Below, piece by piece: positions 39,009-58,961 of a stretch of 64,000 nt of DNA. Below the pieces are notes generated by a model that did no database searches, was not told the DNA's origin, and saw nothing but the letters and a program-made list of their open reading frames with translations. Each line of letters starts with the position of its first letter. The stretch's first letter is position 1. Both the position numbers and the translations under genes were made by a program. Source of the stretch: Escherichia coli (lineage in GTDB: Bacteria; Pseudomonadota; Gammaproteobacteria; Enterobacterales; Enterobacteriaceae); NCBI RefSeq assembly GCF_965641715.1, contig NZ_OZ282453.1; one strand, 5' to 3'.

Positions 39009-41087
39009 TTAAATCAATGCCGATTTATCAATTCCCAGCCGCTTCATCCGTGACAGCAGGGTCGTGCGTTTCAGCCCCAGACGTTGCGCAGCGCCTTTAG
39101 GCCCGGCAACCACGCCGTTAGTTTCTTTCAGCACGCGAACAATCAACTGATATTCATCTTCGCCCTCCTGAGCGACAACCGTTGCGGCAGGCGGCGTTTC
39201 AGGCTCCGGTAAAGCAATATCTGGCAATGACAGCTGCAGCACGTTGCCGCGTGTTAGCAATACCGCGCGCTCAATGACGTTTTCCAGTTCGCGTACGTTA
39301 CCCGGCCACTCCATATTGCTCAAGGTGCGCAACGTCTCGGCAGGAATGCTGTCGATATTGCGCCCCAGACGACGGGCAATTTTGAAGGTAAAGGCTTTCG
39401 CCAGCAGCGGAATATCTTCTGGACGCTCGCGTAGTGGCGGAAGGTGAATCGGGAATACGTTCAGGCGGTAATAGAGATCGCTACGGAACTCACGGTCGGC
39501 GACCATTTTTTTCAGATCGCGGTTAGTCGCGGCGATTAGACGCACGTCCGTCTGAATGATTTTGTTGCTGCCGAGGCGTTCAAACTCCTGTTCCTGCAAT
39601 ACACGCAGCAACTTCGGCTGTAACTCCAGTGGCATATCGCCCACTTCGTCGAGGAACAGGGAGCTTTTATCCGCCAGTTCAAAACGACCGATACGCTGGG
39701 CGCTGGCACCGGTAAAAGCCCCACGCTCATGACCAAACAGATCGCTCTCCAGCAATCCGGCAGGCATCGCCGCGCAGTTCATTTTGACCATGCGGCGATT
39801 ATTACGCCCACTGAGATTATGGATAGCACGGGCAATCAGCTCTTTACCCGTGCCAGTTTCACCGAGGATCAGCACGGTACTGTCACTTTGCGCCACCATT
39901 TCAACTTGTTTAAGCACGCTGTACATGGCTTCGCTGCGGCCAATAATCTCGCCAAATTCACTATCAACATTGTTGAGCTGCTCGGTCAGGGCGAGGTTTT
40001 CATCAACCAGCCGTTCTTTCAGACGATGGATTTCCTGATAGGCGAGGGCGTTATCGACAGCGATTGCCACACGTTCGGCAATCTGGCGCAGTAAATTCAG
40101 ATTGGTAGTGGTAAACACTTTCTCTTCACATTGCGCCAGTTTCAGCACGCCCAGCATGGTGTCGCCAGACATCAGCGGTAACAGGCACAAAGTTTGAATC
40201 TGGTTGCCCCAGGTATCGAACAACATGCGTTCATAGGGGGCTAAATCATCCCGCTCGTGGAGATTAATCAGCAGCATCTCTTTACTTTTGAACACGCGTT
40301 CGGTGAGGGTTCCGGCTTCATCGACTTCGCTCTGTTCGTGGGCGGGATGCTGTTTATCAAGATAGTGAGTGGAGTAGATGTTGAGTTTGTTTTTACGGTG
40401 GCTGCGTAAGACGATACTGATATCGTCAATATCGAAATAGTAATGGATTTCTTTGGCGACTTCGCTGACCAGTTCGTCCATATCCAGGCGGGAAAGCACC
40501 GCGTTGGTGATGGCGACCAGGATGCGGAAGTTATCGCGTTCCCGGCATAACAACTCATAGTCGACATTGTTAACGACGCGACTCTGGATTTGTTCGGTGA
40601 CGACAGAAACGATCTGCGTAAATGTTTGCAGACGATTGAACTCTTTTTCGCTCCAGGGGCGATCGTCATAACGAATAAATTCACAGCCACCAAAAATATG
40701 CCCTTCCGCCGCCAGTGGCATCAGGCAATAGTGACCAAATTTTGGGTATAGCCCACCTGCGGCCAGCTGCGGCCAGGTTTCACAAAATTCTTCGTAACTG
40801 CAATGCAGCGTATCAGGGCGCGACAAAATGCTGCGTACCGGACCGTGTGCCAGAACAGTTTCGTCTTCATATTTAATGGGGGTGTCTTTTTCACGCGATG
40901 CGTAATAAGACGCACGTTGAGTCTGCGCTTGCCACAACACAATAGCCGCGTTGTCGGCGAGCGCAGAACGCTTTACCAGTTGCGAAAGAGCCTCACACAG
41001 CGAGGCCAGATCGGGCTGCTGCAATAGTGTCCGAGTGATGTCGAACAACCCTTGCTGTCCGAGATCACTCATCGGTGTATATGACAT
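39009..41087 (-). CDS. fhlA: Formate hydrogenlyase transcriptional activator FhlA (sigma-54 dependent, 692 aa)
   Basis: ORF 39009..41123; likely start giving MSYTPMSDLGQQGLFDITRTLLQQ; AAA+ sigma-54 activator motifs GETGTGKE and GAFTGA; C-terminal HTH. Confidence 0.95.
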   Translation of the reverse strand: MSYTPMSDLGQQGLFDITRTLLQQPDLASLCEALSQLVKRSALADNAAIVLWQAQTQRASYYASREKDTPIKYEDETVLAHGPVRSILSRPDTLHCSYEEFCETWPQLAAGGLYPKFGHYCLMPLAAEGHIFGGCEFIRYDDRPWSEKEFNRLQTFTQIVSVVTEQIQSRVVNNVDYELLCRERDNFRILVAITNAVLSRLDMDELVSEVAKEIHYYFDIDDISIVLRSHRKNKLNIYSTHYLDKQHPAHEQSEVDEAGTLTERVFKSKEMLLINLHERDDLAPYERMLFDTWGNQIQTLCLLPLMSGDTMLGVLKLAQCEEKVFTTTNLNLLRQIAERVAIAVDNALAYQEIHRLKERLVDENLALTEQLNNVDSEFGEIIGRSEAMYSVLKQVEMVAQSDSTVLILGETGTGKELIARAIHNLSGRNNRRMVKMNCAAMPAGLLESDLFGHERGAFTGASAQRIGRFELADKSSLFLDEVGDMPLELQPKLLRVLQEQEFERLGSNKIIQTDVRLIAATNRDLKKMVADREFRSDLYYRLNVFPIHLPPLRERPEDIPLLAKAFTFKIARRLGRNIDSIPAETLRTLSNMEWPGNVRELENVIERAVLLTRGNVLQLSLPDIALPEPETPPAATVVAQEGEDEYQLIVRVLKETNGVVAGPKGAAQRLGLKRTTLLSRMKRLGIDKSALI

Positions 41088-41160
41088 TTTGTTCTTCCAG
41101 GAAAGCACCGCAAAGCGGTGCAAAAGGTCATTGACTAACTATAGGAGATTTAGAATTTTA

Positions 41161-43561: not shown

Positions 43562-44424
43562 CGCTGTGTCTCCAGCCAGTTCAGCCACTGGTCCATCCCT
43601 TCGCCGCTGGTGGCGGAAATAAGGATGATTTCAATTTCTGGATTGACTTCGCGGGCGCAGGCGATGCACTTCTCAACGTCAAAGTTGAGATACGGCAACA
43701 GGTCAACTTTGTTGAGCAGCATCAGCGAGGCGGCGGCAAACATATGCGGATATTTCAGCGGTTTGTCTTCACCTTCGGTAACGGAAAGCACCGCCACTTT
43801 GTGTTTTTCACCGAGATCGAAGCTGGCCGGGCATACGAGGTTGCCAACGTTTTCGATAAACAGAATACCGTTATCGTCCAGTGGCAGACGCGGTGCGGCG
43901 TCGGCAATCATCTGTGCGTCAAGATGGCAGCCTTTACCGGTGTTCACCTGAATCGCTGGTGTGCCGGTAGCGCGAATGCGTGCGGCATCGTTCACGGTTT
44001 GCTGGTCACCTTCAATAACCGCGCACGGAACGCTGTCTTTCAGGCGCATTAAGGTTTCCGTCAGCAGGGTGGTTTTACCGGAACCAGGGCTGGAAACCAG
44101 GTTGAGCACCAGTTGCTTGCGGGCAGCAAAGCGCGCGCGGTTGCGTTCAGCCAGACGGTTGTTTTTGTCCAGCACGTCAATTTCGACTTCCAGCATCCGG
44201 CGCTGGCTCATGCCCGGCGCGTGAGTGCCCGCTTCGCCATGACCGTAATGCAGGTCGCCTTCTTCAGTCTGGCTGGGGGTAAATTCAGGCGTTTTAATGC
44301 CGGTGATTTTCATCTTCGGGCGTGCCGCCGGGGCAAATGGCGCGCTACGAAACGCGGAATGAGGGTTATGTTCATCACCCTCGATATACAGGTTGCCTTC
44401 ACCGCAACCGCATGTTGTACACAT
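43552..44424 (-). CDS. hypB: Hydrogenase nickel incorporation GTPase HypB (290 aa)
   Basis: 290 aa, N-terminus [10 protein letters not shown]; His-rich region; GTPase motif GSGKTT. Confidence 0.95.
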
Positions 44425-44427
44425 CGC

Positions 44428-44778
44428 TCACTCCTGGTCTATTTCTATCCGCCGAATCTGTAAACCGTCGTCTGCCACAATCTGTAGCATGTCACCATGA
44501 CACTGTGGACAGCGGCGGACGCGCTGGGTCAGTAGCGTCACATACTGTTGGCATGTTTCACACCAGCATTCGGCCTCTTGTTCTTCGAGGTGCAGTTTAC
44601 AACCTTCCGCCACGCTGCCGCGGCAAACCAGATCAAAACAAAAGGCAAGAGAGCTGGTTTCGACACAAGAAAATGCGCCAATTTTGAGCCAGACCCCAGT
44701 TACGCGTTTTGCGCCGTGTTTTGCGGCCTGCTGTTCGATCAATTCCAGTGCCCGTTGGCAGAGGGTTATTTCGTGCAT
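44428..44778 (-). CDS. hypA: Hydrogenase nickel insertion protein HypA (116 aa)
   Basis: Start giving MHEITLCQRALELIEQ; zinc motif CxxC...CxxC. Confidence 0.93.
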   Translation of the reverse strand: MHEITLCQRALELIEQQAAKHGAKRVTGVWLKIGAFSCVETSSLAFCFDLVCRGSVAEGCKLHLEEQEAECWCETCQQYVTLLTQRVRRCPQCHGDMLQIVADDGLQIRRIEIDQE

Positions 44779-44809
44779 ATCGCCTCCCATTAACTATGGC
44801 CAGCTACAA

Positions 44810-44825
44810 GCAATAATTGTGCCAG
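44810..44825 (-). promoter_or_regulatory. sigma-54 (-24/-12) promoter for hyp operon
   Basis: Minus strand reads CTGGCACAATTATTGC (TGGCAC-N5-TTGC), about 30 bp upstream of hypA start. Confidence 0.7.
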
Positions 44826-44850
44826 TATTGATTATCCCTGCGGTGAATAA

Positions 44851-44890
44851 TGTCGATGATGTCGAAATGACACGTCGACACGGCGACGAA
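44851..44890. promoter_or_regulatory. Candidate FhlA upstream activating sequence in hyp/hyc intergenic region
   Basis: tgtcgatgatgtcgaaatgacacgtcgacacggcgacg with repeated TGTCGA / GTCGACA half-sites; related copies at 45502..45557 and 58817..58854. Confidence 0.5.
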
Positions 44891-44936
44891 ATTCATCTTT
44901 AGCTTAAAAATCGTTTTAATAACAATGAATTAAAAG

Positions 44937-44952
44937 TTGGCACAGAAAATGC
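44937..44952 (+). promoter_or_regulatory. sigma-54 (-24/-12) promoter for hyc operon
   Basis: TTGGCACAGAAAATGC (TGGCAC-N7-TGC with GG and GC spaced 10 nt), about 38 bp upstream of hycA ATG. Confidence 0.7.
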
Positions 44953-44989
44953 TTAAAGCTGGCATCTCTGTTAAACGGGTAACCTGACA

Positions 44990-45451
44990 ATGACTATTTG
45001 GGAAATAAGCGAGAAAGCCGATTACATCGCACAGCGGCATCGTCGCCTACAGGACCAGTGGCACATCTACTGCAATTCGCTGGTTCAGGGGATCACGTTA
45101 TCGAAAGCGCGCCTGCATCACGCCATGAGCTGCGCGCCGGACAAAGAACTCTGTTTCGTCCTTTTTGAACATTTTCGTATTTACGTCACCCTGGCGGATG
45201 GCTTTAACAGCCACACCATCGAGTATTACGTCGAAACAAAAGATGGCGAAGACAAACAGCGGATTGCGCAGGCACAACTGAGCATTGACGGCATGATTGA
45301 TGGCAAGGTCAACATCCGCGATCGCGAACAGGTTCTGGAACACTATCTCGAAAAAATCGCTGGCGTTTACGACAGCTTATACACCGCCATTGAAAACAAT
45401 GTGCCGGTGAATTTAAGCCAACTGGTAAAGGGACAAAGCCCGGCAGCATGA
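44990..45451 (+). CDS. hycA: Formate hydrogenlyase regulatory protein HycA (153 aa)
   Basis: 153 aa, N-terminus MTIWEISEKADYIAQRHRRLQDQW. Confidence 0.93.
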   Translation: MTIWEISEKADYIAQRHRRLQDQWHIYCNSLVQGITLSKARLHHAMSCAPDKELCFVLFEHFRIYVTLADGFNSHTIEYYVETKDGEDKQRIAQAQLSIDGMIDGKVNIRDREQVLEHYLEKIAGVYDSLYTAIENNVPVNLSQLVKGQSPAA

Positions 45452-45501
45452 GCTGAGGCTTTGCCCGTTTTGCAGGCGTTACGCCTGTTTGGGGATGGGC
45501 G

Positions 45502-45557
45502 TGTCGATGAGTGTCGAAAATGACATTTCATCGGCATGTTTTCGTCAAAAATGACAA
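45502..45557. promoter_or_regulatory. Candidate FhlA upstream activating sequence in hycA-hycB intergenic region
   Basis: tgtcgatgagtgtcgaaaatgacatttcatcggcatgttttcgtcaaaaatgaca; first 25 bp nearly identical to the element at 44851. Confidence 0.5.
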
Positions 45558-45575
45558 TCACCTGAGGAATGCCTG

Positions 45576-46187
45576 GTGAATCGTTTTGTAATTGCTGACT
45601 CCACGCTCTGTATCGGCTGCCACACTTGTGAGGCCGCCTGTTCAGAGACGCATCGCCAGCACGGCCTGCAATCAATGCCGCGCCTGAGAGTGATGCTGAA
45701 TGAAAAAGAATCTGCGCCGCAGCTCTGTCACCACTGTGAAGATGCACCCTGCGCGGTGGTCTGCCCGGTTAACGCCATCACCCGCGTTGATGGGGCCGTG
45801 CAGTTGAATGAAAGCCTGTGCGTAAGCTGCAAGCTGTGCGGCATCGCCTGCCCGTTTGGCGCAATTGAATTTTCCGGCAGCCGTCCGCTGGATATTCCGG
45901 CAAATGCCAATACCCCGAAAGCGCCACCGGCACCGCCTGCTCCGGCGCGTATCAGTACGCTGCTTGACTGGGTGCCGGGTATTCGCGCGATCGCCGTCAA
46001 ATGTGACCTTTGCAGTTTTGATGAACAAGGTCCGGCCTGCGTGCGGATGTGCCCGACTAAAGCCCTGCATCTGGTGGATAACACCGATATCGCCCGCGTC
46101 AGCAAACGTAAGCGTGAGCTGACCTTTAACACGGACTTTGGCGATCTCACCTTGTTTCAGCAGGCTCAAAGTGGAGAGGCTAAATGA
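45576..46187 (+). CDS. hycB: Formate hydrogenlyase subunit 2, 4Fe-4S ferredoxin (203 aa)
   Basis: 203 aa, N-terminus MNRFVIADSTLCIGCHTCEAAC; four CxxCxxCxxxCP clusters. Confidence 0.95.
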   Translation: MNRFVIADSTLCIGCHTCEAACSETHRQHGLQSMPRLRVMLNEKESAPQLCHHCEDAPCAVVCPVNAITRVDGAVQLNESLCVSCKLCGIACPFGAIEFSGSRPLDIPANANTPKAPPAPPAPARISTLLDWVPGIRAIAVKCDLCSFDEQGPACVRMCPTKALHLVDNTDIARVSKRKRELTFNTDFGDLTLFQQAQSGEAK

Positions 46188-48010
46188 GCGCAATTTCCCT
46201 GATCAATAGCGGCGTGGCGTGGTTTGTCGCCGCCGCTGTTCTGGCATTTCTCTTTTCTTTTCAAAAGGCGCTAAGCGGCTGGATAGCCGGAATTGGCGGC
46301 GCGGTTGGTAGTCTGTATACGGCAGCCGCGGGCTTCACTGTACTGACTGGCGCGGTTGGCGTGAGCGGTGCGCTGTCGCTGGTAAGCTACGATGTGCAAA
46401 TCTCTCCGCTTAACGCGATTTGGCTGATTACGCTCGGTCTGTGCGGTCTGTTTGTCAGCCTCTACAACATTGACTGGCATCGCCACGCGCAGGTGAAGTG
46501 CAACGGCTTGCAGATCAATATGTTGATGGCTGCCGCCGTCTGCGCCGTCATTGCCAGCAACCTCGGCATGTTCGTGGTAATGGCCGAAGTCATGGCCTTG
46601 TGTGCGGTGTTCCTCACCAGCAACAGCAAAGAGGGCAAACTGTGGTTTGCGCTGGGGCGTCTTGGCACTCTGCTGCTGGTGATTGCTTGCTGGCTGCTGT
46701 GGCAGCGTTATGGCACGCTGGATCTGCGCCTGCTGGATATGCGTATGCAACAGCTGCCGCTCGGTTCCGATATCTGGCTGCTCGGTGTGATTGGCTTTGG
46801 CCTGCTGGCCGGGATTATTCCGCTGCACGGCTGGGTGCCGCAGGCACATGCTAACGCCTCTGCGCCAGCTGCCGCGTTGTTTTCTACGGTAGTCATGAAA
46901 ATTGGCCTGCTGGGCATTTTAACCCTGTCACTGCTGGGCGGTAATGCACCGCTGTGGTGGGGGATCGCGCTGCTGGTGCTCGGCATGATCACCGCGTTTG
47001 TCGGTGGTCTGTATGCGCTGATGGAGCACAACATCCAGCGCCTGCTGGCTTACCACACCCTGGAAAATATCGGCATTATCCTGCTGGGGCTGGGCGCTGG
47101 CGTAACGGGTATCGCGCTCGAACAACCGGCGCTGATTGCTCTTGGCCTGGTCGGTGGTCTGTACCATCTGCTTAACCATAGCCTGTTCAAAAGCGTACTG
47201 TTCCTCGGGGCGGGGAGCGTCTGGTTCCGTACCGGTCATCGCGATATCGAAAAACTCGGTGGTATTGGCAAGAAAATGCCGGTTATCTCCATCGCTATGT
47301 TAGTCGGGCTGATGGCAATGGCTGCACTGCCGCCGCTGAACGGTTTTGCCGGGGAATGGGTTATCTATCAATCCTTCTTCAAACTGAGCAATAGTGGCGC
47401 GTTTGTTGCACGTCTGCTGGGGCCGCTGCTCGCTGTGGGGCTGGCAATTACCGGTGCGCTGGCGGTTATGTGTATGGCGAAAGTCTATGGCGTCACGTTC
47501 CTCGGCGCGCCGCGTACCAAAGAAGCCGAAAACGCCACCTGTGCGCCGCTCCTGATGAGCGTAAGCGTAGTGGCACTGGCGATTTGCTGCGTAATTGGCG
47601 GTGTTGCTGCGCCGTGGCTGCTGCCGATGCTGTCTGCTGCTGTACCTCTGCCGCTGGAGCCTGCTAACACCACCGTTTCTCAACCGATGATCACGTTGCT
47701 GCTGATTGCCTGCCCGCTGCTGCCATTCATCATTATGGCGATTTGCAAAGGCGATCGTTTGCCATCGCGTTCCCGCGGCGCGGCCTGGGTGTGCGGCTAC
47801 GACCACGAAAAATCAATGGTGATTACCGCTCACGGTTTTGCCATGCCGGTGAAACAGGCGTTTGCGCCGGTGCTGAAACTGCGCAAATGGCTGAATCCGG
47901 TGTCGCTGGTGCCGGGCTGGCAGTGCGAGGGGAGTGCGTTGCTGTTCCGCCGGATGGCGCTGGTTGAACTGGCGGTACTGGTGGTGATTATTGTTTCACG
48001 AGGAGCCTGA
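46184..48010 (+). CDS. hycC: Formate hydrogenlyase subunit 3, membrane antiporter-like (608 aa)
   Basis: 608 aa polytopic membrane protein; overlaps hycB stop. Confidence 0.95.
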   Translation: MSAISLINSGVAWFVAAAVLAFLFSFQKALSGWIAGIGGAVGSLYTAAAGFTVLTGAVGVSGALSLVSYDVQISPLNAIWLITLGLCGLFVSLYNIDWHRHAQVKCNGLQINMLMAAAVCAVIASNLGMFVVMAEVMALCAVFLTSNSKEGKLWFALGRLGTLLLVIACWLLWQRYGTLDLRLLDMRMQQLPLGSDIWLLGVIGFGLLAGIIPLHGWVPQAHANASAPAAALFSTVVMKIGLLGILTLSLLGGNAPLWWGIALLVLGMITAFVGGLYALMEHNIQRLLAYHTLENIGIILLGLGAGVTGIALEQPALIALGLVGGLYHLLNHSLFKSVLFLGAGSVWFRTGHRDIEKLGGIGKKMPVISIAMLVGLMAMAALPPLNGFAGEWVIYQSFFKLSNSGAFVARLLGPLLAVGLAITGALAVMCMAKVYGVTFLGAPRTKEAENATCAPLLMSVSVVALAICCVIGGVAAPWLLPMLSAAVPLPLEPANTTVSQPMITLLLIACPLLPFIIMAICKGDRLPSRSRGAAWVCGYDHEKSMVITAHGFAMPVKQAFAPVLKLRKWLNPVSLVPGWQCEGSALLFRRMALVELAVLVVIIVSRGA

Positions 48011-58813: not shown

Positions 58814-58826
58814 ACATTGTCATCAC

Positions 58827-58860
58827 ATGTCATCGTCACTAGTGTCGATGACATCTTTTT
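58827..58860 (+). terminator. Inverted repeat followed by T-run after ascG: candidate terminator and/or FhlA-type site for hydN
   Basis: TGTCATCG-N10-CGATGACA followed by TCTTTTTT; contains TGTCGATGACA, which resembles the hyc/hyp UAS motif. Confidence 0.45.
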
Positions 58861-58961
58861 TCCTGCATTACAGAAATTAATTTCCTTAAATAACAGCAAA
58901 TTAAAAACTGGCATGATTTGTGAATGTATCGGCGCATTAACTGTCATTGCTGGAGAATTTG

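Follow-up and report, generated by a model that had tools for sequence, protein, structure and literature searches.

The enhancers (UAS) through which FhlA, a formate-sensing activator, switches on the hydrogen-producing hyc and hyp operons have been known in Escherichia coli K-12 since mapping work of the early 1990s; the literature on FhlA UASs comprises Birkmann & Boeck (1989), Lutz et al. (1990), Schlensog, Lutz & Boeck (1994), Hopper et al. (1994), and Leonhartsberger et al. (2000). In the two papers of 1994, both in J Biol Chem, FhlA is said to bind one site between hyc and hyp and another between hycA and hycB (here UAS1 and UAS2, respectively), the first reportedly taken to serve hyc and the second hyp. 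Direct FhlA binding and a requirement of the sites for formate-dependent activation were reportedly described for these fragments by the same authors, and in vitro work of that year is said to have found that hyp required UAS2 and hyc required UAS1. UAS1 and UAS2 of the present locus, which we take to be these published FhlA sites of the E. coli formate regulon, have the locus, the sequence (K-12), the promoters, and the motif family in common with the described formate-regulon UASs (fdhF, hyc, hyp, and hydN-hypF), and no difference in substance was seen from the published E. coli FhlA sites. The two elements are genuine and functional, show strong conservation, and are the FhlA enhancer pair already characterised in E. 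coli.

Several other sigma-54 systems are comparable. At zraP/zraSR, the ZraR sites likewise form one intergenic enhancer between divergent sigma-54 promoters; we know of no second cluster inside either zra operon. The NtrC enhancer of glnAp2 likewise consists of clustered dyad sites for an AAA+ activator, acts by looping, and remains active when moved far away (PMC3844500), whereas the protein and the motif (TGCACC-N5-GGTGCA) differ, and the glnA sites lie at approximately −110 to −140, compared with a distance of ∼730 bp, in the neighbouring operon, for UAS2. NifA (TGT-N10-ACA) and GlrR (TGTC-N10-GACA) also use TGT(C)/(G)ACA inverted half-sites (PMC6615313, PMC4987338), but with a different spacing, the UAS inner dyad being TGTC-N5/6-GACA and accompanied by direct TGTCGA repeats 10 bp apart. 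FhlA itself activates the fdhF, hyc, hyp, and hydN-hypF operons from sigma-54 promoters (PMC3844500, PMC4987338) and binds upstream of fdhF and hyc, contacting one side of the DNA (PMC11291172). Its enhancers are described as TGT/ACA inverted repeats in PMC6615313, citing Schlensog 1994, and IHF is listed as an activator of both hyc and hyp (PMC2636881). A literature search, with the primary 1994 papers and the relevant reviews outside its reach, returned no statement on the position of the hyp enhancer, and searching with the site sequences themselves returned unrelated papers only.

The window, that is, the whole stretch of 64,000 nucleotides that was analysed, contains the divergent hyp and hyc operons, and the features discussed are collected in Table 1. 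Of 5426 complete E. coli genomes, 5425 matched the region, with identities of 95–99.6%. Positions 44760–45600 were 98% identical to K-12 MG1655, in which both elements are base-for-base the same. The genes had been called correctly as hypA, hycA, and hycB in the earlier note; hycC is also among the genes called at the locus. The coordinates of fhlA are those of the longest open reading frame, the true start probably being internal. As the domain search placed fhlA, with its HTH domain, inside the window, the cognate activator is encoded in this genome.

Both divergent promoters are of the sigma-54 type (−24/−12), and the hycA and hypA promoters pair as an inverted repeat. Starts were predicted by counting from the GG and GC dinucleotides of these promoters, resulting in positions near 44798 for hyp (20 nt ahead of the hypA ATG) and near 44964 for hyc (26 nt ahead of the hycA ATG); these predicted distances of 20 and 26 nt agree with published ones. 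According to PMC4591121, the hypA promoter corresponds to sigma-54 ChIP-seq peak OS28 of E. coli K-12, with the same sequence, and the hycA promoter to peak OS27. Sigma-54 ChIP-seq peaks were found at both promoters in Salmonella as well (PMC3844500). The K-12 RefSeq annotation contained no binding-site features at the hyp/hyc region.

Table 1. Genes, promoters, and putative regulatory sites in the window.
Feature	Position	Strand	Description or basis
hypA	ATG at 44778	−	
hycA	44990..45451	+	FhlA antagonist, between the two site clusters; Pfam HycA_repressor, E = 1.3e-90
hycB	GTG at 45576	+	
fhlA	39009..41123	−	Closes the hyp operon; encodes the cognate sigma-54 enhancer-binding protein; domains GAF, Sigma54_activat (1.2e-72), HTH_8
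Sigma-54 (−24/−12) promoter of hypABCDE-fhlA, TGGCACAATTATTGCT	44809..44824	−	1 mismatch to TGGCAC-N5-TTGCA; conserved in 81 sequences
Sigma-54 promoter of hycABCDEFGHI, TGGCACAGAAAATGCT	44938..44953	+	Sigma-54 motif scan; conserved in 81 sequences
UAS1, TGTCGATGA TGTCGAAATGACA CGTCGACA	44851..44880	.	Alignment, conserved block, hexamer clustering
IHF-like site, TAACAATGAATTA	44920..44932	+	Differs from WATCAANNNNTTR at one position; flanked by UAS1 and the hycA promoter
UAS2a, TGTCGATGAG TGTCGAAAATGACA tt TCATCGGCATG	45502..45538	.	Alignment, conservation, hexamer spacing
UAS2b, TTTCGTCAAAAATGAC(A)	45540..45556	.	Most conserved non-coding block; repeat match, cross-genus alignment
hydN-hypF enhancer (predicted), palindrome ATGTCATCGTCAC-TAG-TGTCGATGACAT	58827..58854	.	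Approximately −94 from the predicted hydN start
Sigma-54 promoter of hydN, TGGCATGATTTGTGAA	58909–58924		ChIP-seq peak OS26 (PMC4591121)

UAS1 is flanked by the divergent sigma-54 promoters, with 27 bp to the −24 element of hypA and 58 bp to that of hycA, and is centred at approximately −98 from the predicted hycA start and approximately −68 from the predicted hypA start. Within it, two TGTCGA hexamers are spaced by 9 bp; TGTC-N5-GACA forms an inner dyad and TGTCGA...TCGACA an outer one. UAS2 (45502–45556) occupies the 3′ part of the hycA-hycB spacer, at approximately −705 to −760 relative to the predicted hyp start and +538 to +592 relative to that of hyc, with ∼680 bp between it and the hypA −24 element. 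UAS2a has the layout of UAS1 (two hexamers followed by GACA), its right arm being partly conserved, and UAS2b follows 31 bp after the UAS2a core, 20 nt ahead of the GTG start of hycB. Like TGTCGA, GTCAAAAATGAC is one of the conserved blocks of the elements. The sole terminator-like match recorded was just the GC-rich UAS1 dyad on the minus strand.

The similarity between the two spacers had been described in the earlier note by means of three quoted strings, all of which were recovered by sequence look-up exactly where it had placed them. Near-identity over 25 bp, as claimed there, holds if two indels are allowed and fails for an ungapped comparison: when UAS1 is aligned with the hycA-hycB copy (TGTCGATGA-TGTCG-AAATGACA over TGTCGATGAGTGTCGAAAATGACA), 22 of 22 aligned bases agree, and two 1-nt gaps are needed. 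In local alignment, the hypA-hycA and hycA-hycB spacers scored 36, compared with 18.3 ± 2.6 for dinucleotide shuffles, and one in 3000 shuffles reached 36. When the first site was compared with every 124-nt tile of the 64-kb window, the hycA-hycB spacer scored highest after the site itself (36; next best 24). The further copy proposed for the second region is indeed present at 45544–45556, where 12 of 13 positions equal those of 45513–45525, 31 bp upstream. With up to two mismatches, TGTCGAAAATGACA occurs in the window at these two places only (0.53 expected). Three of the four occurrences of GTCR-A(2-4)-N-TGAC in the 64 kb fall within the two hyc/hyp spacers, and nowhere else in the window are TGTCGA/TCGACA-type hexamers as densely clustered as at UAS1 and UAS2.

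For analysis of conservation, HycA was scanned using one genome per species, resulting in 80 loci ranging from Escherichia, Salmonella, and Citrobacter to Klebsiella, Enterobacter, Kluyvera, and Kosakonia, with HycA identities from 100% down to 63%; the alignments cover 81 distinct Enterobacteriaceae sequences. The gene order hypA, hycA, hycB was kept in all scanned loci. The length of the hycA-hycB spacer ranged from 67 to 146 nt across species, the variable part being the 5′ stretch past the hycA stop codon; correspondingly, the first ∼47–50 nt of the E. coli spacer are unconserved and are absent in many genera. The 3′ part carried, in all of them, GTGTCGA, 3–4 nt, GTGTCGA, 2–4 nt, GACA, and finally TTTCGTCAAAAATGAC. 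In the 81 sequences, the UAS2 blocks and the Shine-Dalgarno region of hycB were conserved at 95% or more, and TTTCGTCAAAAATGAC was nearly invariant; in 68 of the 81 species, a fixed 33 nt separate it from the hycB start. The conserved islands of the hypA-hycA spacer in the same sequences were the two promoters, UAS1, and an AT-rich block beside the hyc promoter. The conserved unit consists of two TGTCGA hexamers 10 bp apart, then GACA, plus TTTCGTCAAAAATGAC.

Within E. coli, 5362 of 5426 records matched the window at 99% identity or more over a 64-mer covering UAS2, and 4865 of 5426 did so over a 64-mer covering UAS1, whereas a 64-mer from the adjoining AT-rich spacer reached at least 99% identity in just 379 E. 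coli records. Judged by these comparisons, the UAS sites are under purifying selection relative to the flanking non-coding DNA. A recent duplication was considered as the source of the likeness between UAS1 and UAS2a and was found unlikely, because in other genera the two resemble each other far less, although both retain the half-site pattern. The near-identity in E. coli is best read as convergence on one binding pattern.

Spacing was conserved in units of approximately one helical turn. The TGTCGA hexamers of UAS2a are ∼10 bp apart in nearly all 81 sequences, and the distance from the inner hexamer of UAS2a to CGTCAAAAATGAC of UAS2b is 30 or 31 bp in 60 sequences and mostly 18–22 bp (∼20 bp) in the other 21. 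Across species, UAS1 lies 42–44 or 54–55 bp from the −24 element of hypA and 48, 59–62, or 70–71 bp from that of hycA, so for both promoters the distance classes differ by 10–11 bp. Length changes by whole helical turns are expected of a protein array on one face of the DNA. In 56 of the 81 species, an IHF-like site with at most one mismatch was found 17–19 nt upstream of the hycA −24 element.

Related sites were found at other FhlA targets. The earlier note had named absence of the motif at fdhF and other targets as refuting its reading, and this check did not refute it. Upstream of K-12 fdhF, CGTCAAAACTGAC matches UAS2b, the third copy, at 12 of 13 positions and is centred at approximately −105 from the sigma-54 promoter TGGCATAAAAGATGCAT (0.07 expected at up to two mismatches); a second TTTCGTCA lies near CGTCAAAACTGAC. 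The hydN enhancer and UAS1 have TGTCGATGAC in common (TGTCGATGACATC at hydN, TGTCGATGATGTCG in UAS1; 0.06 expected), and the IHF-like site of hydN is located exactly 18 nt before the −24 element. Approximately 100 bp upstream of the hyfA promoter, GACACGGGTGTCGAA was found. UAS2b and fdhF use CGTCA...TGAC(A/G), and hydN uses the same half-sites in another arrangement. The core TGTCG-N3/4-TGACA put forward in the earlier note is a partial description, fitting UAS1 and UAS2a but not UAS2b or the sites of fdhF and hydN.

PMC4987338 attributes the FhlA consensus CATTTCGTACGAAATG to Leonhartsberger 2000. Among the sites, its best match was 11 of 16 positions at 45538–45553 (UAS2b plus its 5′ flank), while three unrelated places in the window reached 12 of 16. 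The half-site CGAAATG occurs exactly at 44863, and the scan returned no 16-mer with 10 or more of 16 matches in fdhF, hydN, or UAS1. As it did not separate real sites from background, CATTTCGTACGAAATG was rejected as a scanning tool; this commonly copied consensus fits the natural sites poorly.

Taking these data together, both elements would be FhlA enhancers, and UAS2 would most likely be a remote enhancer of the divergent hypA promoter (probability approximately 0.85). The FhlA-site reading for hyc and hyp, already proposed in the earlier note, is supported by the divergent sigma-54 promoters, the presence of fhlA in the window, the footprints in 81 sequences, and the helical spacing. The sequences, promoters, conservation, phasing, related sites at fdhF and hydN, and presence of FhlA were observed here; we infer, or take from the literature, the binding of FhlA at UAS1 and UAS2 and the assignment of UAS2 to hyp. 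ModE or another regulator was also considered as the binding protein and was set aside; inspection by eye revealed no ModE-type TATAT repeat in either element.

The mechanism would be as follows. Each cluster would present TGTC/GACA-type half-sites approximately one helical turn apart, and with this spacing FhlA oligomers would assemble on one face of the DNA. FhlA bound at UAS1, ∼100 bp upstream of the hycA promoter, would loop onto the RNA polymerase-sigma-54 complex with the aid of an IHF bend in the intervening DNA, after which ATP hydrolysis would open the promoter. At hydN, an array ∼100 bp upstream combined with an IHF bend site would provide the same standard looping geometry as at hyc. 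UAS2, located within the hyc transcription unit, would act at a distance on the hypA promoter. Because just 27 bp, containing no bend site, separate UAS1 from the hypA −24 element, UAS2, ∼730 bp off, would be the natural partner of hyp, and DNA of that length would probably loop unaided.

Sequence alone does not tell which promoter UAS2 serves, and UAS2 could instead be an FhlA site whose target is, entirely or in part, the hycA promoter, reached from downstream (+538 to +592); it would cooperate with UAS1 via an FhlA-bridged loop around hycA rather than serve as a private hyp enhancer. A sigma-54 activator can use an enhancer on either side of the promoter, even kilobases away (PMC3844500), UAS1 and UAS2a have nearly the same sequence, UAS1 keeps its helical phase with both promoters, and no sequence feature ties UAS2 specifically to hyp. 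However, UAS1 and the IHF-like site already form a complete canonical unit for hycA, in the same layout as at hydN. The in vitro work of 1994, in which UAS2 was reportedly needed for hyp and UAS1 for hyc, also speaks against it. We regard an action of UAS2 on hycA as unlikely, though deserving some weight. A more speculative variant, in which FhlA at UAS1 and UAS2 would bridge 650 bp and loop out hycA, co-regulating the divergent operons by topology, and/or a UAS2a RNA hairpin would set the ratio of hycA to hycB-I, is doubtful. If true, the invariance of TTTCGTCAAAAATGAC would reflect two overlapping constraints.

It is still less probable that the hycA-hycB palindrome is mainly an RNA hairpin in the hyc mRNA, that is, a processing, stability, or translation signal uncoupling hycA from hycB-I, its likeness to the first site being secondary. 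The predicted folding energy of the spacer RNA (−54 kcal/mol, compared with −36.9 ± 3.7 for shuffles; z = −4.6) and the 15-bp hairpin formed by UAS2a are in line with such a role, and some positions of the outer arms change on both sides, with a covariation score of 0.140 compared with 0.113, reached by one in 500 shuffles. In the comparison for compensatory change, 78.5% of cells were paired compared with 77.3% in shuffles, and five of 15 pairs had changed on both sides. Yet no variation at all is seen in the inner pairs, ∼70% of the sequences leave the two middle pairs unpaired, and a register slid by −1 scores nearly as high (0.131). The 21 short-spacing sequences without the right arm keep both left hexamers, UAS1 has the same layout while lying upstream of both promoters and being untranscribed, and UAS2b is invariant without a stable stem.

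It is highly improbable that UAS2 serves as enhancer to a sigma-54 promoter inside the operon that drives hycB-I independently of hycA. UAS2 does lie directly upstream of hycB, and PMC4591121 gives a weak sigma-54 ChIP-seq peak (IS31) inside hycC, at 47395–47410 of the window. That site is 1.85 kb away, however, with the lowest peak score among the rows listed, and UAS2b ends just 20 nt from the hycB start. On the + strand, no TGGCAC-N5-TTGCA-like motif with up to two mismatches was found between 45075 and 46699, and UAS2 is not a conventional upstream site for hycB. The sole sigma-70-like match in 44700–45700 lies in the hypA leader, at chance level, and an internal hycB promoter was rejected. 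Finally, the notion that the likeness arose by chance, or is a functionless remnant of a local duplication, has in its favour the short length of the elements and nothing else, and is practically negligible given that one in 3000 shuffles reached the alignment score, that the blocks but not the flanking spacer DNA are conserved in 81 species, and that related motifs occur at other FhlA-dependent promoters.

To the published description of UAS2 as the putative distal hyp enhancer and UAS1 as its hyc counterpart, the present analysis adds the cross-genus footprint, the length classes of one helical turn, the near-invariant TTTCGTCAAAAATGAC, and the weak performance of the textbook consensus. The comparative data offer a better working description of the FhlA site than the consensus copied into reviews, and the unusually rigid 16-nt block suggests itself as the target where formate-responsive expression or hydrogen production is to be engineered. 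For the family as a whole, they describe an enhancer, as UAS2 is read here, that lies inside a neighbouring operon and has been kept in place across the Enterobacteriaceae.

The region spanning 44400-46200 was missing from only one of 5426 complete E. coli genomes, and its top identity to any genome of this set was 99.6%, so that the exact strain is absent from the set. A plasmid-borne copy of the same region was found in one E. coli record. The control region of hydN-hypF (58816-58924), located upstream of hydN, has the same layout as that of hyc. The features are listed in the table below.

Features in and around the hyc and hydN-hypF regions (positions in window coordinates).
Feature	Position	Strand	Remarks
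Motif look-alike GTCGAAATTGAC	44176	-	Coding DNA, hypB
Sigma-54 -24/-12 motif TGGCACATCTACTGCA	45059-45074	+	Within hycA; near-perfect, 1 mismatch
GC-rich hairpin CCCGUUUUGCAGGCG...CGCCUGUUUGGGGAUGGG	45463-45500		Directly 3' of the hycA stop; found in Escherichia
Motif look-alike CGTCAAATGTGAC	45995-46007	+	Coding DNA, hycB
TGGCGCGTTTGTTGCA	47395-47410	+	Within hycC; matches IS31 of PMC4591121, a weak sigma-54 ChIP-seq peak of the intragenic type
hydN palindromic enhancer	58827-58854
IHF-like site TAACAGCAAATTA	58891-58903		Exactly 18 nt before TGGCAT of hydN
hydN promoter	58909-58924

The sigma-54-like motif TGGCACATCTACTGCA in hycA is oriented towards hycB. It originates from the conserved codons QW[H/R]xYCNSL and was retained in 37 of the 81 orthologues compared; no counterpart was present among the sigma-54 ChIP-seq peaks in the available rows of PMC4591121. 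Probably, this hycA-internal motif is a by-product of the coding sequence. Chance or coding constraints probably also account for the look-alikes in hypB and hycB. The sequence CATTTCGTACGAAATG is given as the FhlA 'consensus enhancer' in Table 1 of PMC4987338 and is repeated across reviews; following a scan with this sequence, the natural fdhF, hyc, hyp and hydN sites were not separated from background.

At the place equivalent to the Escherichia hairpin downstream of hycA, other hairpin-forming sequences are found in Salmonella and Citrobacter. In Klebsiella, Enterobacter and Kluyvera, this place holds no sequence at all, and the hycA-hycB spacer measures only 67-83 nt. Located between hycA and hycB, the Escherichia hairpin could serve as an attenuator or as a stability element.

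Further downstream, in the region 45540-45575, 68 of 81 species have the first base of TTTCGTCAAAAATGAC exactly 33 nt upstream of the hycB start. It is followed by CACCTGAGGA, the Shine-Dalgarno region of hycB, which is likewise conserved across the 81 species. In the fold predicted for E. coli, CACC from this region pairs with the GTG start of hycB and the preceding G. The enhancer in this region and the translation-initiation region of hycB may constrain each other.
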